Of a stretch of DNA of 64,000 nt, positions 16,742 through 29,250 are shown piece after piece. The stretch is from an uncultured Chloroflexia bacterium. GTDB taxonomy: Bacteria > Chloroflexota > Limnocylindria > Limnocylindrales > CSP1-4. Position 1 is the first letter of the stretch. Every line of letters begins with the position of its first letter. Under the pieces are notes generated by a model. It worked only from the letters and a program-made list of their open reading frames with translations, was not told the DNA's origin and searched no databases. A program made the position numbers and the translations under genes. The DNA lies in assembly GCA_963772995.1 (NCBI GenBank), contig CAVYZQ010000005.1, forward strand, positions 12,409-76,408. The letters are read 5' to 3'.

Positions 16742-17501
16742 CTATCCGATCATCGCAGAGCGCTCGTCCTTGACCATCTGCTGCTCGATGGGGGCGGCGG
16801 CAGGCGGCTCCACGTCGAGCAGATAGCCGATGCCCTGGAAGGTCTTGATCCGGCCGGGCTCTCCGGGCTCGGCGCCGAGCTTGCGACGGACGCGCGAGAC
16901 CCAGACCCGCAGGTACTGGAGGTCGTCTCGATACTCCGGCCCCCAGACCTTCGTCAGGAGCTCGCGTGTGGAGGACGACCTTGCCGGCGTTGGCCGCCAG
17001 GTGCTGGAGCAGCAGCCACTCAGTCCGGGAAAGCTGCACCAGCTCGCCATTGCGGGTGACCATCCGCCGCTCGAGATCGATCTCGACGTCGTCGAAGGCC
17101 AGGATCCCGGCACCGGGCTGCGCGCCAGATGAGCGTCGCAGGACGGCGCGGACACGCGCCGCAAGCTCGTCCGGATGGAACGGCTTGGCGATGTAGTCAT
17201 CCGCTCCGAGGTCGAGGCCCTTCGCCTTGTCGGCTGTCGAGCCCTTTGCCGTCAGAAGGATCACCGCGACCGGGCGGCGCTCCCGCAGCTGACGCATGAC
17301 CTCGATGCCGTCGAGGTCCGGCATCACGATGTCGAGGAGGACGATGTCCGGGCGGACATCCTCGGCCTTCTGGAGCGCCTCTTCGCCGCTGTTGGCGGTG
17401 ACGACGCGGAAACCCTCTTCGCCGAGGGCGATCGAGACCAGCTTGGTGATGCGAGGCTCGTCGTCCGCAACGAGCACGAGTGGCTGGGTACTCACCGGCA
17501 C
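16742..17501 (-). pseudogene. OmpR/KdpE-type response regulator, one frame hop
   Basis: Receiver domain in ORF 16680..17501 (LVADDE, DIVLLDIVMPDLDG, ILLTAKG, ADDYIAKPF). The winged helix continues in ORF 16742..17200 (ELLTKVWGPEYRDDLQYLRVWVSRVRRKLG) after a hop near 16970. Confidence 0.85.
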
Positions 17502-17795: not shown

Positions 17796-17989
17796 ATGTG
17801 CCTGAACTGCGGCTGCGGTGACCCGAAACTCGTCACAAGGACAGCGACATCGTCCAGCAGGACATCCAGAAGGCCGCTGACGGCCAGGGCATGTCGAAGG
17901 ACGAGACGATCCAGAACATCGAATCCTCCCTTCAGAAGATGCGGTCGCAGGCAGGCAGCACGACCGGCGCCGGGACCAGCGGCTACTGA
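17796..17989 (+). pseudogene. Small protein with N-terminal MCLNCGCG cysteine motif, one frame hop
   Basis: ATG 17796 with GGAGGA 5-11 nt upstream gives MCLNCGCGDPKLV. After a hop near 17830 it continues HKDSDIVQQDIQKAADGQGMSKDETIQNIESSLQKMRSQAGSTTGAGTSGY, with stop 17987-17989. A strong hairpin follows. Confidence 0.55.
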
Positions 17990-18016: not shown

Positions 18017-18050
18017 CGAAGCCGCCGGGCGCGCAGGCCCGGCGGCTTCG
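18017..18050 (+). terminator. Stem-loop, probable intrinsic terminator of the small Cys-motif gene
   Basis: CGAAGCCGCCGGGC / loop GCGCAG / GCCCGGCGGCTTCG: a perfect 14-bp stem, 28 nt after the stop codon. Only a weak T tract follows (ACGTGTTCGG). Confidence 0.55.
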
Positions 18051-18235
18051 ACGTGTTCGGCGTGGGATGTGGACGAGGTGAGCCCATGCGGTCCGGTCCC
18101 GCGCCTGCGGACCATCAGCCCGGCCCCGCACGGCCTGATATCGACCACGAGCCTCCCCAGCTCGGCGGATCGCGCACGGCCCGGATCCCGACCGCGAGGC
18201 GCCCCAGCTCGGCCGGCCCCGCGTCAACAAATGGC

Positions 18236-18768
18236 AATCCTGGACGAAACGACGACCGGGCCGGCCGGCGGTGCCCGTACCCTGCTCCGCGGCTTGTGGC
18301 TGCCAGTCAGCACCGGGCCCTCGAAGCCCGCGCGAAGCCCGCGCGAACCCGTGTCTGGCGTCCGGATGGTGCGTGGCAGGCACAGATCCCGTCGGTGGAG
18401 CCCGCCGTGGCGAGGTCCTCGTGCGTTGGACGCTTCCGTGCTGACTGCCAACCACCATCGTGGGTCGCGTCCAGCGTGGGCTCGCGTCCATCCCACGGTC
18501 GTGGGGCTGTCACGCTCAGGGTCGCGCGTCTTCGTCGCCGGCACGCCCGTCGCCCCGCTTGCTCGTCGACCAGGCGGTCGACGGCGGAGGTCGGCACGCC
18601 CCGGATCACGTCCCGGTCGGCGGATCTGGTGTCCGGCCGTCGACGGCGGAGGTCCGCATCGCGTCCCTGCCGTTCGACGGCGTCACGTGGCGGTCAGACC
18701 GCCGCGGCGACCCTCGCTCGCGACCGGCCGCGAAGGCGGCCAGGTTGGCCTTCGGTCGAAGTCCAGCT
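18236..18768 (+). repeat. Copy A of a ~0.5-kb inverted repeat (non-coding element plus frame-broken stub of an OFOR gamma-subunit gene end)
   Basis: Hand alignment with the reverse complement of 25775-26292 gives about 22-25 differences over ~520 nt. The right end (18715-18768, minus strand) encodes [10 protein letters not shown] followed by a 4-nt deletion relative to copy B. Confidence 0.9.
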
Positions 18769-19450
18769 TGTACGTCGGCAAGACGATGCGAGGCGTCCCT
18801 CGGCTAGATCTGGACCGCCGGCACCGGCGCCTTCGCCTGGTCGCGCAGGGAGGCGCCGGAAGCGGACTCGGGGGCGCCACAGATCCAGGTCCCAGATACG
18901 GCGACGGACGGTCCGGGAGGGGGACCGGACCGTCCGTGCTGCGGGCCACCGTCACGAGTCGCCCTGGAGATATTGCGATGTCTGGAGGCCCCGGCGGGTC
19001 CTCGTGTCTCTCTGTTGCGTGCATACCGTACGGGCGGCCGGCATGCAACGCTTGATTGCCTCTGGCCGGATGGACATTGCAGCGGCATAACAATCCGGAT
19101 CGATAGGGCCCGGCCCCGGTGCCTTCGGCTCATCCCGTATCCACGCTCGACCGTCCGGCCCATCCCCTCGGCGACGCACGCTCGATGTTCATCTCGGGGA
19201 CTTCCACGGCCATACCGGAGACGCGCTGAACGCTGACGTCGCCGGTGTTGCGAGCAAAGCACATGGGGTGAGCGATCCGGGTCGGTCAAGCTCGTCCAGG
19301 ATCGTCGAAGCCGGTCGGATCCGCTGTCCGGCCGACCTCCGGCCCTAGCCGCGCCGAAGACCCTCAGATGAACATGTAGCGGTCACGCCAACGGTCAAGT
19401 GACCCCGAACAAGAGAATCCGCACCTGCACGCGGCCCCGAGACCTGCCCT

Positions 19451-21091
19451 TCAGTCCGACTCCGCTCCGGAGGCCCGCCCCGCGACCGCCGGCGCCGGCG
19501 GCTCCGCGCCGATCGTCTCGTCGTCGGGGAGGACCCGGAGCGTGAACCCGAATTCGGCGCCACCCTCGGGCCGGGATCGCGCCCAGATCGTTCCGCCCAT
19601 GGCCTCGACGAGGCTGGCGCAGACGAACAGCCCGATCCCGGAACCCGCGACGGAGCGCGCGCGATCCGGACTGCGGAAGAACAGCTCGAAGGCGTGCTCG
19701 GCAGTGGCTGGGTCGATGCCCGGCCCCGAGTCGAGGACGCGCACCACGACGGTACCGTCCTCCTGCTCGGCCCGGACGATCGACCTCTGTGCCTGGAGGC
19801 GTGTATTTCGCGGCGTTCGACAGCATGTTCCGGACGATCTGTTCGACGTAGGTCTCCTCGCCCGCGACGACCGGCAGATCGCGCGCGACCTCGGTCCTGA
19901 TCACCAGGCCGGGCAGCCTCGCCTGCTCGCGCGTCGGCGACGCGCGCAAGGATGCGGCGCGAGCTGAAGCGGTTCGGCCTCGACCGCGAACTGGCCGCGC
20001 TCCGCGCGTGTCAGCACCAGGAGGTCCTCGACGAGGCGGAACAATCGCTCGGATTCGACCGCGATGTCGTCGATCAGACCCGCCCGTTCACGAGCGTCGT
20101 CGATCCGTCCCGGGCGAGCGAGGATCCGGGTCAGACCGAAGATGGTCGTGATCGGTGTCCGAAGCTCGTGCGAGATGACGTCGATGAATGCCTCGCGGAA
20201 GGCCCCGGCGCGGCGTTCGTCGGCGAGGAGCCGGTCGCGATCGGCCTCCAGCCTGCGCCGCCCGGTGATGTCCGTGCCGGTGCCGATCACGCGGGTCGGC
20301 CGCCCGTCGGCGTCTCGGAAGACTCGGCCAACGCCGTGGGTCCAGTGGACCGAACCGTCGGGCCACAGGATGCGGAACTCCAGGCTGAAGTCCTCGCGTG
20401 ATGCGACGGTCTCGTCGATCGTCCGGCGGAACATCTTCGCGATCGTCGGGATGGATCGTCTGGATGTAGCGCTCGAACGAGGGGGCCTCCTCCGTCCCGT
20501 CGAGCCCATGCTGGCGGAAGATCGTGTCCGACCAGGTGAGCTCTCCCGATCGCACGTCCCATTCCCAGAAGCCGGTGCCGGACGGTGGCGAGGACGAGCT
20601 CGAGGCGCTCGTCGCGGCGCTCGATCGCCGCCGCCATGGCCCCCAGTTCCACCAGCGACGCCGAGAGCCGGTCCCTCGACATCTGGAGCGAGGCGAGAAG
20701 CCAGGTCACGATGAGGCCGCCGAAGATGAACAGGATCGTTCGACCCGCATCGAGCGCGCTCAACGGTGCGGGCCCCGGGACGCCGACGAAGACCACGAGG
20801 TTGAGGACGGCCGCGACCAGGATCGCCGCCAGCCCACCGCGGAGGCCGGCGAGCCAGGCACCTGCCAATGCGGCCGACGATCAGGACGATGAAACCGGTG
20901 TCGCCGCCGAGGATCGCGTTGAGACCGGCCTTCAGGACGATCGCCCCGAGGCCGACCAGGGCACCGATCGCGATGTCCCGTGCCGCGGCCGCGCGGCCTC
21001 CGGCGACGACGGGCGCGCTCTGCTGATCCGGCGGGAGGGCATCCCGCTGGGCGCGCATGAGCGTGCGACCTTCGTTGCTGTCTGACGTCAA
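19451..21091 (-). pseudogene. Sensor histidine kinase (KdpD-C-terminal-like membrane domain, PAS, HisKA, HATPase), at least 4 frame hops
   Basis: Pieces from ORFs 19901..21091, 20287..20868, 20088..20555, 19395..19949 and 19451..19747. Membrane domain IAIGALVGLGAIVLKAG…LAAILVAAVLNLVVF; PAS …SVHWTHGVGRVFRDADGRPTRVIGTGTDIT; H-box SHELRTPITTIFGL; NMLSNAAKYT; VLDSGPGI; GSGIGLFVCASLV. Confidence 0.8.
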
Positions 21092-21247
21092 TCCGATCCT
21101 CCGGTGTGCGGCATGGATACCACACGAGGCTGCAACGGTGATGAAATGTCGTCTGCGACGGGAGGCGATGTCGACCCGCCCCGTTCGCGTTTACCGTGGG
21201 ACACTGGTCGGCCGGCCCGGTCGCGGTCGCCGTTTTCGAGGTGCCTG

Positions 21248-22436
21248 ATGACGTCCCGCGCGCTGCGTATCGCCCACGTCGCTCCTCCGATCGAGCGCGT
21301 CCCGCCGCACGGCATACGGCGGCACCGAGCGGGTCGTCTCCGAGCTCGTCGTCGAGCTCGTGCGTCGGGGCCACGAGGTCACCACCTTCGCCAGCGGCGA
21401 TTCGAGCGTCCCGGGCCGCCACGTCGAGACCGTCCCGGTCGCCCTTCGGCCCAAGGGCTACGGCGGCGATGTCGGCCCGTACATGCTCGCGACGATGCGC
21501 AAGGTCATCGACCAGGCGGACGAGTTCGACATCGTGCATTCGCACCTCGAATGGTGGAGCCTTCTGCTGGCAGAGGTGCTGTCCGTTCCGGTCGTGACCA
21601 CGTTCCACGGGCGGCTCGACAAGGACTGGGCTCGCGACGCGTTCCAGAACCCACCGGCGGGCCTCGTCGCGATCAGCCAGAACCAGGCTTCCACTCATCC
21701 CGACGTGCCATTCACGGTGATCTACAACGGGCTTTCACTCGAGGGGGCTCCATTCGACCGCCGCCGCAGCGACGCCCTCTGCTTCGTCGGACGGGTGACT
21801 CCTGAAAAGGGCATCGTCGAAGCGATCGAGATCGCCAAACAGGCCGGCCGTGCCTTGAAGATCGCCGCGAAGGTCGGTCCGACCCCGCCGGAGCAGGCCT
21901 ACTATGAGAGCGCGTTCCTGCCTGCCCTCGAGTCGGCCGGCTCCGACGTCGAGTTCCTGGGTGAGCTCGAACAGGCCGATCGCGACGCGCTCTTCGCGTC
22001 GAGCGCGGCCGCGTTGATGCCGGGCTCGTGGCCCGAGCCCTTCGGCCTGGTCGCCATCGAGGCGATGGCGTGCGGGACGCCGGTGATCGCGCGGCGGACC
22101 GGTGCCCTGCCCGAGATCATCCGGGACGGCGTCGACGGATTCTTCGGCGACGACGTGAGCCAGATAGCCTTCAAGGTCGAGTCCGTCGACAAGCTCGACC
22201 GCGCCGAGATCCGCCGCTCCGTGCTCGAGCGGTTCTCGGCGACCCGGATGACGGACGACTATCTCGCGCTCTATCGACAGATGCTCGGCATGGAGACCGC
22301 AGGGCCCGGACCGGATCGGGCGGCGCTTCCGGCTCCGAGCGAATCACCCGACTACCCTCGGCTCCCGCGGCCGTCCCGCGTCGGTGCGCTCGCCGCGGTC
22401 GAGACGCGGACGCGATCCGTCGTGCGGGGTCCCTGA
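21248..22436 (+). pseudogene. GT4-family glycosyltransferase, one frame hop
   Basis: ATG 21248 gives MTSRALRIAHVAPPIERVPPHG (frame of ORF 21104..21805). After a hop near 21315 it joins ORF 21360..22436 (…FVGRVTPEKG…, EPFGLVAIEAMACGTPVIA, the E-x7-E region). Confidence 0.8.
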
Positions 22437-22474
22437 CTGCGCGGACATGGGAGCGAGCCTCCAGCCAGATAGAG

Positions 22475-22502
22475 GAGCCCGGCCCCGCTCGGGACCGGGC
22501 TC
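22475..22502 (+). terminator. GC-rich hairpin downstream of the glycosyltransferase gene (possible terminator)
   Basis: GAGCCCGG…CCGGGCTC, an 8-bp outer stem with inner CCCG/CGGG pairing, 39 nt after stop 22436. No U tract. Confidence 0.3.
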
Positions 22503-22668
22503 GGGTCGGCGTCCGCGGCTGGAAGTGGATGCGGCCCTCGGGCGTCGCCGAGGTGGAAGGTAGATGCGGTCAGCCTGGCGGCCCGTCACAGGAAGCCATC
22601 GCTGCATAACAGCGGCATGACGGTCGGCACGCCTGGCTCGGGATGACGGGCCGGGCGCGGCCGGCCGG

Positions 22669-22842
22669 TCAGTTCTTCTTGCTGCGCTGTGCCTTCGTCT
22701 CGCCGTGCTCGCGACGGGTCTTGTTGACCGTGCGCGCTGCGCGCTCCTCCGCCTCGTCCTCGCCCACACCTCGATCCTCGTAGGAATCCTTGATGTGCTC
22801 GTACTGGCGTTCGCGCTTGTCACTCCACGCCTGCTGCGGCAT
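22669..22842 (-). CDS. Small basic conserved hypothetical protein (57 aa)
   Basis: ATG 22842 inside ORF 22669..23034, GGAGG 8 nt upstream. MPQQAWSDKRERQYEHIKDSYEDRGVGEDEAEERAARTVNKTRREHGETKAQRSKKN. From memory, similar proteins are often annotated as plasmid stabilization or stress proteins. Confidence 0.55.
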   Translation of the reverse strand: MPQQAWSDKRERQYEHIKDSYEDRGVGEDEAEERAARTVNKTRREHGETKAQRSKKN

Positions 22843-23062
22843 GTCCACACACCTCCATTCGGCTTGTGCGGCGATTGCACCGCGCGCCGCTGGACGTCCG
22901 GACTCATCCCACGCCGACGCGGTGTCGCAACGAGGTGACAGATGGCGAGGTTCGGCCTCGTCGCCGGCGTGCCACGGACGGCCGAATGGCCCGCCACTGA
23001 CCATCGTCCGGCACTCGCCGCCTTCGGCGGGCACGGGCTAGGGTTGGTCATCGGAGGTGAAG

Positions 23063-23335
23063 ATGGCGACCGCCATCGAGGAGATCCCCGATACCGTCCC
23101 GCGAGTCGAGGTCTTCCAGCCACTCGACATCGCGATGCACCGATGCAAAGGCTGCGAGCTGTGTGTCCACATCTGCCCCAGGCACGTCCTGGAGCTGGAC
23201 ACCACGATCGTCAATCCACTCGGCTACCACCCGATCAGGCTGACCGATGCCGCCGCCTGCACGAGCTGCGCGCTGTGCGCCCGGATCTGCCCGGATGTCG
23301 TCTTCACCGTCTATGCCCGCCCCAGGGAGCGCTGA
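23063..23335 (+). CDS. 2-oxoacid:ferredoxin oxidoreductase delta subunit (2x[4Fe-4S] ferredoxin)
   Basis: ORF 23057..23335. ATG 23063 sits 5 nt after GGAGG. Two cluster motifs, [12 protein letters not shown] and [12 protein letters not shown]. Confidence 0.85.
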
Positions 23336-23336
23336 C

Positions 23337-24461
23337 GTGGTCGTGACCCTCGACTCCCCCACCTCGACGGCGCCGGTCCGGCCGGTCCTCATGAAGGGCA
23401 ACGAGGCGATCGCCGAGGCCGCCATCCAGGCCGGCTGCGACGCCTACTTCGGCTATCCCATCACCCCGCAGGCGGAGCTCCTCGAATGGATGGCCCGCCG
23501 GATGCCGGAGGAAGGTCGAGTCTTCGTCCAGGCCGAGAGCGAGCTCGCGGCGATCAACATGGCGCTCGGGGCGGCGGCGGCCGGGGCCCGGGTCATGGTC
23601 TCCTCGTCGAGCCCCGGGATCAGCCTGATGGCCGAGGCGATGAGCTACATGGCCGGATCCGAGGTCCCGGTCGTGCTCGTCAACGTCATGCGCGGGGGTC
23701 CCGGGCTCGGCAGCATCGGGCCGTCCCAGGCGGACTACTTCCAGGCCGTCAAGGGACACGGTCACGGCGACTACCGCGTGCCCGTCCTCGCACCGTCGTC
23801 GATCTCGGAGGCCGTCGACCTCGTGGCCGACGCATTCGAGATCGCGGAACGCTACCGGACGCCGACCATCCTCCTGACCGACGGGGTCATGGGCCAGGCC
23901 ATGGAGCCGGTCCTGCCGACCTACCGGACGCCAGCGCGCCCCGTCGATGACTGGCAGCTGTCGGGCGCCGACGGCCGGCCGCCTCGTGTCGTCCGCTCGC
24001 TGCACCTCGCACCCGAGGAGCTCGAGGCGCACGACATCGCACTGCAAGCGAAGTACAAGGACATCGCGGAGCGCGAAGTGCGCTGGGCCGGCGAGTCCCT
24101 CGACGACGCCGAGATCGCGATCGTGGCCTATGGCACGTCGGCACGGGTCGCGCGAACCGCGATCGAGCGTGCGCGTGAGCACGGGTTCGCCGTCGGGCTG
24201 TTCCGGCCCATCACGCTGTGGCCGTTCCCGTCCGAGGCGCTCGCCGCCCTCGCGCCGCGATTGCGGGCCATCCTCGTGGTCGAGATGTCGGCCGGCCAGA
24301 TGGTCGAGGACGTCCGGCTCGCTGTGGGCGACCGCGTCCCGGTCATGTTCCACGGGCGGATGGGCGGCATGGTCCCGACGCCCGGCGAGGTGGTCCGCGC
24401 ACTCCGGCGCGCGTGGGCCACGACCGAGCCACTGTCCGATACGGCGGGAAGACGACGATGA
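23337..24461 (+). CDS. 2-oxoacid:ferredoxin oxidoreductase alpha subunit (VorB/KorA-like)
   Basis: GTG 23337 in the frame of ORF 23247..24461, 2 nt after the delta stop. [25 protein letters not shown] and [21 protein letters not shown]. Confidence 0.9.
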
Positions 24462-25282
24462 CACCGACGAATGCGCCGACCATGCCCGAGACGACACCGT
24501 CGCGGACCCATCCGGGCCGGCTCATCTACGCGAAGCCGGAGTCGCTGACGGAGAGATCGAGCCATTACTGCCCCGGTTGCGGGCACGGCATCATCCACCG
24601 GCTCGTCGCGGAGCTCCTCGACGAGCTGGAGCTCCGACCCCGGACGATCGGCGTCGCCTCGGTCGGCTGCAGCGTCTTCGCCTACGACTACCTGCCGGTC
24701 GACTTCGTCGAGTCGCCGCATGGGCGTGCCCCGGCGGTCGCGACCGGCGTCCGTCGAGCCCGCCCCGACGCGTTCGTGTTCACGTACCAGGGCGACGGCG
24801 ACCTCGCCGCGATCGGGACCGCAGAGATCGTCCACGCGGCGGCCCGTGGCGAGCGGATCAGCGTGATCTTCGTCAACAACGGCATCTACGGGATGACCGG
24901 CGGCCAGATGGCCCCGACGACGCTGCTCGGCCAGCGGACCACGTCGAGCCCGACCGGTCGCGAGGCCAGCCTGGCGGGCTACCCGATCCCCATCACCGAG
25001 ATGCTCGCCCTCATGCCGGGCGTCTCGTACGCGGCGCGCGGGTCCATCGCCGACCCGAGCCTCATCGGCAGGGCCAAGGCGATGATCCGGCGCGCCTTCG
25101 AGATCCAGCTCGCCGGCGGCGGGCTGTCGATCGTCGAGATCCTCTCGACCTGCCCGGTGGGCTGGGGACTCACCCCGATCGAATCGATGGAGCACCTCGC
25201 CACGGACGTCGTGGCGACGTATCCCCTCGGCGTGATGGTCGATCGGATGGCCGCCCCGCGTGCACCACGACCGGAGGCCTGA
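24458..25282 (+). CDS. 2-oxoacid:ferredoxin oxidoreductase beta subunit (TPP-binding)
   Basis: ATG 24458 (ATGA overlap with the alpha stop) in the frame of ORF 24218..25282. CPGCGHG and the TPP motif [11 protein letters not shown]…[12 protein letters not shown]. Confidence 0.9.
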
Positions 25283-25286
25283 GCGA

Positions 25287-25835
25287 ATGGAGCACGGAGC
25301 GATCGTCTGCGGGTTCGGCGGCCAGGGGATCCTGTTCGCCGGCAAGGTTCTCGCCCAGGCCGCGATGCTCGAGGGTCGCGCGGTGTCGTGGATGCCGTCG
25401 TACGGCCCGGAGATGCGCGGCGGGACCGCGTCATGCACGGTCGTCATCGCGGATCGCCCGATCGGCTCGCCGATCGTCGACCTGGCCGACAGCGTGATCG
25501 CCCTCAACCCGCCCTCGATGGCCAAGTACGCGCCGCTGCTCTCGCCCGGCGGCCTCCTGATCATCAACGATTCATTGATCGAGGCTGAGCCGGAGCGGTC
25601 GGACATCGAGGCCGTGAGGCTGCCTTGCACGCAGCTGGCCCGGACGGCCGGCGACGACCGCTACGTCAGCGTCGTCGCGCTCGGCGGACTCGTGGCCCGG
25701 CGGCCGATCGTCACGACGGCGTCCGTGGAGGCGGCCCTGGCCGAGCTGGTCGGCAGCCGGCCGGAGATCCTCAAGGCCAACCTGGCCGCCTTCGCGGCCG
25801 GGTACGAGCGAGCGAGGGTCGGCGCGGCGGTCTGA
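25287..25835 (+). CDS. 2-oxoacid:ferredoxin oxidoreductase gamma subunit
   Basis: ATG 25287 in ORF 25260..25835. [22 protein letters not shown] and SYGPEMRGG. Confidence 0.9.
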
Positions 25836-26292
25836 CCGCCACGTGACGCCGTCGAACGGCAGGGACGCGATGCGGACCTCGGCCGTCGACCGCCGGACAC
25901 CGATCCGCCGACCGGGACGTGATCCGGGCCGGGCGGACCTCCGCCGTCGACCGCCTGGTCGACGAGCAAGCGGGGCGGCGGGCGTGCCGGCGACGAAGAC
26001 GCGCGACCCTGAGCGTGACAGCCCAACGACCGTGGGATGGACGCGAGCCACGATGGACGCGACCCACGATGGTGGTTGGCAGTCAGCACGGAAGCGTCCA
26101 ACGCACGAGGACCTCGTCACGGCGGGCTCCACCGACGGGACCTGTGCCTGCCACGCACCATCCGGACGCCGGACACGGGTTCGCGCGGGCTTCGCGCGAG
26201 CTTCGAGGGCCCGGTGCTGACTGGCAGCCACGAGCCGCGGAGCAGGGCACGGTCACCGCCGGCCGGGCCGGTCGTCGTCTCGTCCAGGATCG
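25775..26292 (-). repeat. Copy B of the ~0.5-kb inverted repeat; fills the convergent intergenic gap between the OFOR gamma and hemerythrin genes
   Basis: Reverse complement of 18236-18768 at ~95% identity. Begins in the last ~60 nt of the intact gamma gene (stop at 25835) and ends 24 nt before the hemerythrin stop (26316). Confidence 0.9.
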
Positions 26293-26315
26293 GCGGGGAC
26301 GCGGGCGAGGGACGC

Positions 26316-26789
26316 TCAGGACGCAGCGAGCGTCACCGGCACCTCGTCCATCAGCAGCGGCAGGAGGAAGCGCTCCTCGCGCTCGATATGCGCCCGCAGG
26401 AGTGCCTCGAGCGCGAACAGGTCGGCGCGCGCGGCCTGCATGTCCGCCTTCGCCGGCTGCTTGCGGAGACGTTCGCGCTCGGCCACGATCCTGCGCGCGA
26501 CGTCGCGGATCTGATGGTGCTCGAAGGCCATGGCGCGGGTCGCCCATGGCGTCCCCGCCCGGCGCTCGAACTCCGGGTAGAGCCAGGTCTCCTCCCAGGC
26601 CGCGTGCGGGATCAGGACCTCGTCGATCCAGTCGACCACGTCGAGCATCGCGATGCACATGTCCGGTGCGGCCATCGTGCCGACCGCCATCGCGACGTCA
26701 TGGATCCGGTTGATGCCGGGGGCGAGCTCCCGGTGCTCGCGCTCCTCGAACGCGTGTTCGGCGATCGCCCCGTGCGGAGAGTCCGTCAT
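26316..26789 (-). CDS. Hemerythrin HHE cation-binding domain protein
   Basis: ORF 26316..26789, intact. His/Glu ligand pattern: EHRELAPGINRIHD, HAAWEETWLYPEF, FEHHQIRD, HIEREERFLLP. Confidence 0.8.
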   Translation of the reverse strand: MTDSPHGAIAEHAFEEREHRELAPGINRIHDVAMAVGTMAAPDMCIAMLDVVDWIDEVLIPHAAWEETWLYPEFERRAGTPWATRAMAFEHHQIRDVARRIVAERERLRKQPAKADMQAARADLFALEALLRAHIEREERFLLPLLMDEVPVTLAAS

Positions 26790-27043
26790 CGCTCGCCTCC
26801 TGCCCCTACCATCCGGTCGCCCGGTGAGGGTCGGGACGCCTCTCTGCGTAGCCTCGCTCGGTCGCCCTCGGGCGGATAGGGCCGTCGGTCACGTCCTCGC
26901 CCCCGTCATGGCCCGGGCCGCCCGCCGAGCGTCCCGCGCCCCTCGGCGGGTGCGCGCCCGCCTTCGCGAGACCCAGGCCTTCGCGAGACACAGGTGCAGC
27001 CGCTCGGACTCCCCCGCCGGACCGCGGCGCGACAGCCCGACCC

Positions 27044-27538
27044 TCAGCGGACCGCGATGAGCGCCTCGGTGACCGGGAACTCGATGAGCGTCCGATAGGC
27101 GGTCTCAGGGACCATGTCGCCGGGCCCGGCCTGGTAGCGCTCGCGAGCCGGGCCGGTGGATCGCAGGTCGTGCCGGTCGATCCATGTCGCCACGGCCGAG
27201 TAGGCGTCGGCGAGGGCGTCATACGCGCCCACGTGGACCGTTTGCGCGACCGTCGAGCCGGGTACGACCCGTCGCACGAGCCCGCCTGCGGCGATAAGGT
27301 CGAGGTCCACGTTCATCGCCACCGGCACGCAGACCTCCGCATCGATGCCGTCGTCCTCGAATGCGTGGTAGATGACCATACCGTCCCCGTCCGGTGCCAC
27401 GCCGACCCGCTGCATCCGGCCGTACAGCTCGCCGAAGGTGGTCCCGACGAACGGCGAGAGGTGCGCCCTGTCCGTCCGGGCGCGGATCGAGACGACCGCC
27501 TGATCGGGGACATGGCGGGTCGTGATGTCGTACGTCAT
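27044..27538 (-). CDS. GyrI-like small-molecule-binding domain protein
   Basis: Met 97 of ORF 27044..27826 (MTYDITTRHVPDQAVVSIRARTD…). Typical GyrI/AraC-effector-domain length and pattern. The coordinate is derived from the ORF-track offset. Confidence 0.7.
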   Translation of the reverse strand: MTYDITTRHVPDQAVVSIRARTDRAHLSPFVGTTFGELYGRMQRVGVAPDGDGMVIYHAFEDDGIDAEVCVPVAMNVDLDLIAAGGLVRRVVPGSTVAQTVHVGAYDALADAYSAVATWIDRHDLRSTGPARERYQAGPGDMVPETAYRTLIEFPVTEALIAVR

Positions 27539-27813
27539 GGGTGCTCCTCCCCTCGTGCAACTGTCACGGAGAGTCTCTGGCGGCGCGGGCGCCGTCGCCA
27601 GAGCCGTTCGGGCCGTTCGGCACCCGCCGGAGGCATCGAACGGCGCATGCGTCCGGCCAGCGCCGGGCCCGACGCTTCTCGGTACCGCATCCGAACGGAC
27701 GGGTCGCCGTCGGCACCGGATCGTCCCGAAGCCGCAGGTGAACACGCACGACCACCAGTGACGCAATCCAACGCCCTTCGGCAACAGCCAGTCACCGATC
27801 GAGGAGAGCCCGC

Positions 27814-29180
27814 ATGGACCGTACACGCGTCGTGATCATGGGCGCCGCCGGGCGCGACTTCCACGACTTCAACGTCGTCTATCGGCACGACGCCGGGCGT
27901 CGAGGTGGTCGCCTTCACCGCGACCCAGATCCCGGGCATCGCCGAGCGGTTCTACCGCGCGATCCTCGCCGGGCCGTACTACCCTGCCGGCATCCCGATC
28001 GTCGCCGAGGCCGAGCTCGATCGCGCTGATCCGCGAGGAGAACGTCGACGAGGTGGTCTTCGCCTACAGCGACGTCAGCCACGAGACGGTGATGCACGCC
28101 GCGTCCCGGGTCCTCGCCGCCGGCGCGGACTTCCGGCTGCTCGGCCCCGATCGGACGATGGTCCAGAGCCGCAAGCCGGTGCTCGCCATCGGCGCCGTCG
28201 CGGACGGGCTCCGGCAAGAGCCAGACCACGCGGTACGTGGCCGCAGCTCCTCGCCGAGCGCGGGCTGACGCCCGGTCGTCATCCGCCATCCGATGCCGTA
28301 CGGCGACCTCGCCGCGCAGCGGGTCCAGCGCTTCGCCACCTACGAGGACCTCGACCGTCACGAGACGACCATCGAGGAGCGCGAGGAGTACGAGCCGCAT
28401 CTCGATGCCGGCCGGATCGTCTACGCAGGCGTCGACTACGAGGCGATCCTGCGCGAAGCCGAGGCGGAGGCCGACGTCATCCTGTGGGACGGCGGCAACA
28501 ACGACTTCCCGTTCTACCGGCCGGACCTGTACCTCGTCGTGGCCGACCCGTTGCGGCCGGGCGACGAGCGTCACTACCACCCGGGCGAGACGAACATCCG
28601 GATGGCCGACGTGGTGATCATCAACAAGGTCGACTCGGCGACGCCCGAGGCGATCGACGCGGTGCGCGCCTCGATCGCGGAGCTCAACCCGACCGCCGCC
28701 ATCGTCACCGCGGCGCTCCGAGCTGACCCTCGACGGACCGCCCATCGACGGCCGCCGCGTCGTCGTCGTCGAGGACGGGCCGACGCTGACCCATGGCGGC
28801 ATGCGCTTCGGCGCCGGCGTCGTCGCCGCTCGCCGCTTCGGCGCAGCGGAGCTGGTGGATCCCCGCCCGGTCGCCGTCGGGTCCATCCGGGAGGTGCTCG
28901 AGCGCTACCCGGCGCTCGAGCCGCTCATCCCGGCGATGGGCTACGGCCAGGCGCAGATGCGAGACCTGGCGGCGACCCTCGACGCCACGGACGCAGACCT
29001 CGTCCTGTCGGCGACGCCGATCGACCTGACGCGCGTGCTGACCCTGGCCAAGCCGATCACCCGGGTCGGCTACGAGCTCGTCCCGGTCGGCGGCCCGTCG
29101 ATGTCCGACGTCATCGAGCCGATCGTCCGGATGGCCCGCACGCCGGTCGCGGTCGGAGAGCCGGTCGCCCGATCGGACCA
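27814..29180 (+). pseudogene. P-loop NTPase of the cyclic-2,3-diphosphoglycerate-synthetase-like family (family name from memory), at least 5 frame hops; 3' end approximate
   Basis: Pieces from ORFs 27814, 27905, 28053, 28293 and 28801. MDRTRVVIMGAAGRDFHDFNVVYR…, Walker A AIGAVRTGSGKSQTTR (seen after a hop), WDGGNNDFPF, VVIINKVD, EDGPTLTHGGM. No stop codon in any forward frame between 29100 and 29260, so the end is inferred from the expected length. Confidence 0.6.
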
Positions 29181-29250
29181 CGAGCGGCGCCCGACCGGGC
29201 GGCGCCGAGTCACGAGGGGCGGTCGACGGTCGCCGGCAGCTCGCGCCGCC

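Follow-up and report, generated by a model that had tools for sequence, protein, structure and literature searches.

A half-kilobase inverted repeat around a 7-kb gene block in an uncultured Chloroflexota bacterium, probably a passive scar of segmental duplication

The DNA analysed here is a 64-kb window (64,000 nt of contig CAVYZQ010000005.1, from an uncultured Chloroflexia bacterium), in which two oppositely oriented copies of a half-kilobase sequence bracket a 7-kb block that carries a sensor kinase gene, a glycosyltransferase gene and the operon of a 2-oxoacid:ferredoxin oxidoreductase (OFOR). The pair appears to be the passive scar of an inverted segmental duplication and not a mobile element or a genetic switch, a reading to which we give a probability of roughly 0.7. 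Copy B, which begins in the end of the OFOR gamma gene, is by its alignments the source, and copy A, found between the kinase gene and a small cysteine-rich gene, is the derived one; the repeat is absent from the relatives compared and lacks the features of mobility. The elements on which the argument turns are the following.

18237-18752, minus strand: copy A, 516 nt, the derived copy and reverse complement of copy B
18693-18752, minus strand: frame-broken 3' end of the OFOR gamma gene within copy A, 10 residues followed by a 4-nt deletion (one CTCG unit lost)
18296-18455: internal hairpin of copy A, with arms at 18296 and 18438, the same feature as in copy B
25773-26290, plus strand: copy B, 518 nt, the source copy, composed of 63 nt of gamma gene end and 455 nt of spacer
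26072-26231: internal imperfect hairpin of copy B, with 18-nt arms and 124 nt between them
23063-25835, plus strand: the intact operon of the four-subunit OFOR
23063-23335, 23337-24461, 24458-25282 and 25287-25835, plus strand: the OFOR genes delta, alpha, beta and gamma, respectively
25836-26315: convergent spacer from the gamma stop to the hemerythrin stop, 480 nt, lineage-specific and with many short repeats
26316-26789, minus strand: hemerythrin-domain gene, convergent with OFOR gamma, a neighbour kept in relatives

The initial annotation of this stretch had described an inverted pair of ~0.5 kb and ~95% identity, and both the repeat search and the MAFFT alignment agree with it. The repeat search of the window returned four collinear inverted segments, which global alignment joins into one repeat of 520 columns with 20 substitutions and 3 indel events (~95% identity). 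The substitutions comprise 9 transitions and 11 transversions and are evenly spread along the repeat, while the indels measure 1, 1 and 4 nt (relative to B, copy A has one more base at 18478, a G, and at 18627, a T, and lacks one CTCG unit at 18721); the longest perfect run between the copies is 63 nt. The repeat ends are sharp on both sides of both copies. The coordinates first proposed, 18236-18768 and 25775-26292, hold to within 2 nt, apart from the inner end of copy A, which lies at 18752 and not at 18768. Such a pair is far beyond chance, since the next-best inverted repeat in the window spans just 40 nt at 75% identity. A word-7 blastn search for a third copy found none in the window, which leaves a total of two. 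Furthermore, copies of the repeat are absent among the 172 related loci that were fetched, a 25-mer identical in A and B has no exact match in the GTDB species representatives or the JGI metagenome contigs, and the spacer sequence has no plasmid match. A motif search of the window found the hairpin arm motif and the short internal direct repeats confined to the two copies.

The boundaries of the repeat do not match functional units. The inner boundary of copy B falls within the gamma gene, 63 nt from its end (about 60 nt had been estimated from inspection of the letters), and the outer boundary stops 25 nt short of the hemerythrin stop. Copy B nonetheless represents the native gene end, because the last 20 gamma residues encoded there align with those of 12 homologs. 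With regard to the remainder of the repeat, the convergence of gamma and hemerythrin is kept in six relatives (L001, L002, L003, L005, L006 and L007), and their spacers measure just 12-137 nt against 480 nt in the window, so that most of the repeat is a lineage-specific expansion. When compared with L005, about 15 nt of the extra spacer of copy B falls outside the repeat. The closest gamma homologs, which are 86-90% identical, all come from metagenome contigs, whereas the gamma matches among species representatives belong to Chloroflexota near Candidatus Limnocylindria and reach at most 71%. A protein-seeded metagenome scan for closer relatives with a long spacer found none above 76%.

In close relatives, the gamma-hemerythrin spacer is itself hypervariable, with lengths of 12, 92, 107, 129 and 137 nt (L001 4131-4259, L002, L003 708-799, L005 964-975 and L007 1840-1946), and the variants differ through short GC-rich repeat units that were gained or lost. 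This pattern suggests local slippage or duplication as a possible route to the 480-nt spacer of the window.

Copy A has the properties of a derivative. Its gamma fragment is ~95% identical to copy B and 75-85% identical to the gamma ends of relatives (word-7 blastn). Because the native end is in B, and because A is broken and closer to B than to the relatives, these alignments establish B as the source and A as the derived copy, made within this lineage. Copy A encodes nothing. Two origins had been proposed for it from inspection, of which the first, a secondary and frame-broken copy of the B locus, gains support from the conserved gamma C-terminus and from the gamma-hemerythrin adjacency. The second, the stub of a deleted second OFOR operon, finds no such support: similarity to gamma or hemerythrin does not extend in the window beyond either sharp boundary of A, and no OFOR genes occur at that position in L168, L169, L171 or L172.

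The site of copy A lies in the second of two variable slots of the locus and can be defined from the following two features.

18050-18887: slot 2 interval with copy A, 838 nt against 231 nt in L168
17797-17990, plus strand: small cysteine-rich gene (MCLNCGCGDP...HKDSDIVQQDIQKAADGQGMSKDETIQNIESSLQKM), lacking 1 nt at 17821 when compared with L168

The flanks of copy A are collinear with L168 and L169 (L168 2195-2283 corresponds to window 18976-18888 at 93% identity, and L168 2515-5266 to window 18049-15254), and the interval between them is without the repeat in both relatives. It follows that copy A is a derived insertion, placed where the kinase and the small gene converge on a shared spacer. 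The repeat is likewise absent from L171 and L172.

The small cysteine-rich gene has a 65-aa counterpart in L168 and no convincing Pfam match. A strong hairpin directly after it (18018-18050) is conserved in L168, and a tandem pair directly to the left of copy A (18134-18222) consists of 42-nt units with a 47-nt period and 76% identity.

Taken together, the arbitrary boundaries, the ancestral context of copy B seen in six contigs, and a copy A that is derived and absent in relatives are what an inverted segmental duplication would leave behind. In the sequence of events that we propose, the spacer after gamma would have grown to 480 nt in this lineage by means of local repeats and hairpins. A 516-bp piece of the B region would then have been copied, by replication template switching or by capture during the repair of a break, and inserted ~7 kb away in the opposite orientation, between the sensor kinase and the small gene, where it would have diverged by about 4% since. 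Alternatively, copy A could be the leftover of a larger inverted duplication that was trimmed by deletions. A single staggered-break inversion as the origin of both copies was also considered and is rejected on logical grounds, since either ancestral order would part gamma from its own 3' end or from hemerythrin, unlike the arrangement in the relatives.

Short-range template-switch events mostly involve tens of bases, and kilobase-scale tandem inversion duplications of bacteria keep their copies adjacent. The arrangement described here resembles inverted duplications made by template switching or break repair in that the copies face in opposite directions a few kilobases apart, their ends cut through a gene, there is no element-encoded machinery, and the derived copy is non-functional and missing from relatives. 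It differs from template-switch duplications in that a 516-bp piece lies 7 kb away without demonstrable microhomology at its junctions. Replication template switching is documented as a source of inverted sequence copies in PMC7954356 and 10.1101/2021.11.26.470150.

Several points weigh against a passive duplication. The duplication does not itself account for the 455 nt of extra spacer, and the copying mechanism left no recognisable signature. Junction microhomology was no better than in shuffled controls, and this includes a match of 18 out of 23 positions with the ancestral spacer in the MAFFT alignment, which was tried as a candidate and did not rise above them. The copy count covers the 64-kb window, so that more chromosomal copies are possible, and the junctions are those of the assembled sequence.

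As judged from synteny, both copies sit in rearrangement-prone slots within a gene backbone that is otherwise conserved. When the window is set against L170 and L171, the order of this backbone is MarR, zf-UBP, a 156-aa gene, slot 1, a 57-aa gene, GT4, the kinase, slot 2 and the response regulator. The slot 1 cargo and several backbone members of the window are given below.

22944-29248: slot 1 cargo, a 6.3-kb block of OFOR, hemerythrin, GyrI and a 450-aa gene, between the 57-aa and 156-aa genes
22669-22842, minus strand: gene of a conserved 57-aa basic/acidic protein (MPQQAWSDKRERQ...)
21252-22436, plus strand: GT4 glycosyltransferase, with a 1-nt insertion at 21314
19451-21091, minus strand: PAS/HisKA/HATPase sensor kinase, with six 1-nt insertions
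16742-17501, minus strand: response regulator (REC and Trans_reg_C in relatives), whose output domain is out of frame owing to a 1-nt insertion at 16964

In L170, slot 1 has no cargo and the 57-aa and 156-aa genes are adjacent, while in L171 it holds dioxygenase and TetR genes; the OFOR block appears as slot 1 cargo only in the lineage of the window. The block is syntenic with L001, in which the upstream neighbour differs. No repeats that would mark the edges of the OFOR block were found, and no mobility genes were detected there. As for slot 2, L168 has a 65-aa gene there, L171 a 201-aa gene and L172 PDH-E1, and the window has the small gene together with copy A. The gene order in L168 is GT4, kinase, 65-aa gene, response regulator and Crp.

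By gene content, the operon in slot 1 is that of a four-subunit 2-oxoacid:ferredoxin oxidoreductase. The Pfam domains are a 2x[4Fe-4S] ferredoxin in delta, POR_N and PFOR_II in alpha, TPP_enzyme_C in beta and POR in gamma, and each of the four subunits matches its L001 counterpart at full length in a single frame (tblastn). The window shares with L001, and with the more distant L004, a conserved leader 5' of OFOR delta (22978-23060, ACGGCCGAATGGCCCG ... GTCCGGCACTCGCC), even though the three differ in their upstream genes; it is possibly a promoter, an operator or a 5' untranslated region (UTR) element of the operon. In L001 (5511-6724), GyrI is separated from the 450-aa gene by a tRNA_edit (YbaK-like) gene and a 212-aa gene, both of which are absent from window 27540-27813, and their loss or gain represents another indel within the OFOR block.

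The accuracy of the assembled sequence bears on copy A. When the window genes were compared with intact orthologs, 14 insertions of 1 nt were found at non-homopolymer sites, against only 1 deletion. Six of the insertions are in the kinase (19782-20875), six in the 450-aa gene (27814-29166, with insertions at 27898-28716), and one each in GT4 (21314) and the response regulator (16964); OFOR, hemerythrin and GyrI have no 1-nt frameshifts. Both the bias towards insertions (P = 5e-4, sign test) and their patchiness (P = 1.5e-3) are significant, and split genes are also present in L169 and L172, relatives with long-read contigs of the 'contig_N' style, and absent from JGI short-read contigs. On these three grounds the insertions are probably long-read consensus errors and not the decay of pseudogenes. 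After repair, the kinase has full-length PAS_3, HisKA and HATPase_c domains, and an intact 544-aa ortholog on L168 (P0121) is 88% identical to the conceptually repaired protein. The initial description of the enclosed block needs the correction that the kinase and GT4 are frame-broken as sequenced (six insertions and one insertion, respectively). Segmentation by GC content at third codon positions (GC3) suggests further breaks in the ABC-transporter and B12/deacetylase regions, with patches at about 30-32.8 kb and 34-37.8 kb.

In view of these probable errors, it could be proposed that copy A is an artefact of assembly, arising from a chimeric long read or a fold-back. Patchy, insertion-only frameshifts of 1 nt are typical of an imperfect long-read consensus, copy A lies within one of the patches, and at each of the two 1-nt indels between the copies it is A that has the additional base. 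An outright artefact is nevertheless unlikely, because the differences between the copies are mainly substitutions, 20 of them evenly spread, which misfit an error profile dominated by indels, and because the flanks are collinear with L168 and L169, so that two precise chimeric junctions would be needed. Moreover, fold-backs give contiguous palindromes and not a 516-bp piece from 7 kb away, and 516 bp are easily spanned by long reads. Since the two extra bases in A fall in an error-rich patch, the true identity of the copies may slightly exceed 95%.

The initial annotation had also regarded the repeats as good substrates for homologous inversion of everything between them. RecA-dependent inversion between the arms would be possible and at the same time inefficient, as the arms span 516 bp at ~95% identity and share no perfect stretch longer than 63 nt. 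Four transcription units end at the repeats, namely the small gene (plus strand), the kinase (minus), OFOR (plus) and hemerythrin (minus). Because all of these units point their 3' ends at the arms, a flip would be expected to move no promoter and to have no regulatory effect, with solely 3' contexts being exchanged, and a crossover anywhere in the 455-nt spacer part would leave gamma intact. Among the examples of repeat-mediated chromosomal inversions in bacteria are those in PMC8743559 and PMC8262849. The pair resembles inversions mediated by rrn operons, insertion sequences (IS) or prophages in that inverted homologous arms flank a segment, and in that inversion would be RecA-dependent and need no site-specific enzyme; it differs in having arms that are shorter (0.5 kb), 5% diverged, and neither mobile nor multicopy. 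There seems to be only a slim chance either that the 7-kb block (kinase, GT4, 57-aa gene, OFOR operon and a conserved hairpin element next to the kinase) flips in nature by general recombination between the arms, so that both orientations exist, or that RNA read through from copy A is a trans-antisense RNA to the OFOR or hemerythrin 3' UTRs. Such an RNA, if real, would connect the two-component locus with the oxidoreductase, an enzyme of anaerobic type, in this uncultured, Limnocylindria-like lineage.

Could the 455-nt non-coding unit instead be a non-autonomous mobile element, such as a miniature inverted-repeat transposable element (MITE) or an IS end, that inserted at both sites? It would be consistent with such an element that extra sequence is missing from relatives at both sites, that both sites are convergent intergenic regions, a typical home of small repeat elements, and that an internal 18-nt inverted repeat is present. 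The repeat, however, runs 63 nt into the native, conserved gamma end, which is not the boundary of an element. With one end of the repeat within a native gene and ~15 nt of the extra spacer beyond the repeat, the unit does not have ends of its own, as an element would. The repeat search of each copy showed internal repeats only and none at the termini, and there is no target duplication, since the flanks of A and B share no short direct repeat at their boundaries. An element of this kind also fits poorly with a copy number of two in 64 kb and of zero in the related loci, species representatives, metagenomes and plasmids searched, or with the lack of a transposase nearby, so that it appears very improbable.

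The absence of a mobility gene had already been noted on inspection, and Pfam analysis of the coding segments at ~10-34 kb bears it out, with no transposase, integrase or invertase. The families present there are kinases, regulators, GT4, OFOR, hemerythrin, GyrI-like, MDMPI_N, zf-UBP, B12-binding, deacetylase and MarR. The view that the structure is not an IS or a composite transposon is likewise upheld, given that it has no transposase, terminal repeats, target duplications or extra copies in the window. As in composite transposons and MITEs, inverted repeats bracket a cargo and sequence is missing at the same sites in relatives; unlike them, the pair has no transposase, terminal repeats or target-site duplication and no further copies in the sequences searched, and one of its arms is partly a native gene end.

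A role as RNA may also be envisaged for the repeat. Transcripts that read through copy A would be ~95% complementary over ~500 nt to the 3' UTRs of the OFOR or hemerythrin mRNAs across copy B, and the repeat might have been kept for the trans-antisense coupling that this allows. The geometry is suitable, since both strands of A could pair with the transcript that crosses B in the same direction, and on the plus strand B folds slightly more stably than its shuffles (z = -1.98). Against this, the other-strand fold is not significant, no relative conserves the sequence, the divergence between A and B is even with no protected core, a separate hairpin (18018-18050) already follows the small gene upstream of A, and Rfam gives no match in the repeat even at a permissive threshold. 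Retention as a functional RNA therefore seems highly doubtful.

Other forms of hidden content in the repeat were also tried. A known RNA is rejected on the basis of the blank Rfam result, which at the gathering threshold extends to the whole window, and of folding that exceeds shuffled controls by only a narrow margin, on one strand; a search for tRNA and tmRNA genes was likewise empty. A hidden protein gene is rejected as well, given that GC3 is flat in the non-coding part of the repeat and that the five open reading frames within or overlapping the copies (25843-26220 and 18460-18807 on the plus strand; 25572-26231, 18224-18544 and 18307-18609 on the minus strand) have no Pfam match.

Finally, the inverted pair does bracket a discrete 7-kb block with regulatory and metabolic genes, as would be expected of a programmed inversion system (of the phase-variation or shufflon-like type), but such a function is extremely unlikely, because Pfam detects no invertase, integrase or other recombinase within ~8 kb of either arm, a length of 516 bp and a divergence of 5% contrast with the short conserved sites of such systems, the four adjoining transcription units end at the arms so that a flip would separate no promoter or coding sequence, and the arrangement is absent from relatives. 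The likeness to fimS, hin and shufflons lies in an inverted-repeat pair surrounding a DNA segment, whereas those systems differ in having a recombinase, arms that are tens of times shorter and not diverged, and a reconnection of promoters or coding sequences.

Next to the site of copy A, a separate non-coding element was observed at 18888-18976 (minus strand), immediately 3' of the kinase gene; additional conserved boxes lie at 19041-19095. Its core of ~80 nt is 100% identical in the window, L168 and L169, while coding DNA there is merely 78-84% identical, and it is 80% conserved in L171. The element folds as two hairpins; in the second, a stem of 12-13 bp carries a C-rich loop that does not vary (UCCCCCUC), and the first stem is maintained in L171 via changed bases. 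The sole resemblance in Rfam is below threshold, to small RNAs (sRNAs) with C-rich loops (CcsR1, E = 0.27). The element is a candidate for a new sRNA or regulatory RNA.

For those who annotate this sequence, the gamma-like fragment at 18.7 kb is to be regarded as a relic, and the patchy 1-nt insertions, probably errors, break real genes. Assemblies of this population could also be confounded by an inversion polymorphism of the 7-kb block, should one exist. By itself, the feature is an ordinary, non-mobile relic of inverted duplication in a variable locus and matters little alone. It nevertheless provides a clean, datable case in which a gene end and its spacer were copied in inverted orientation without the machinery of a mobile element, in a host locus whose two variable slots take different cargo across uncultured lineages of Chloroflexota.

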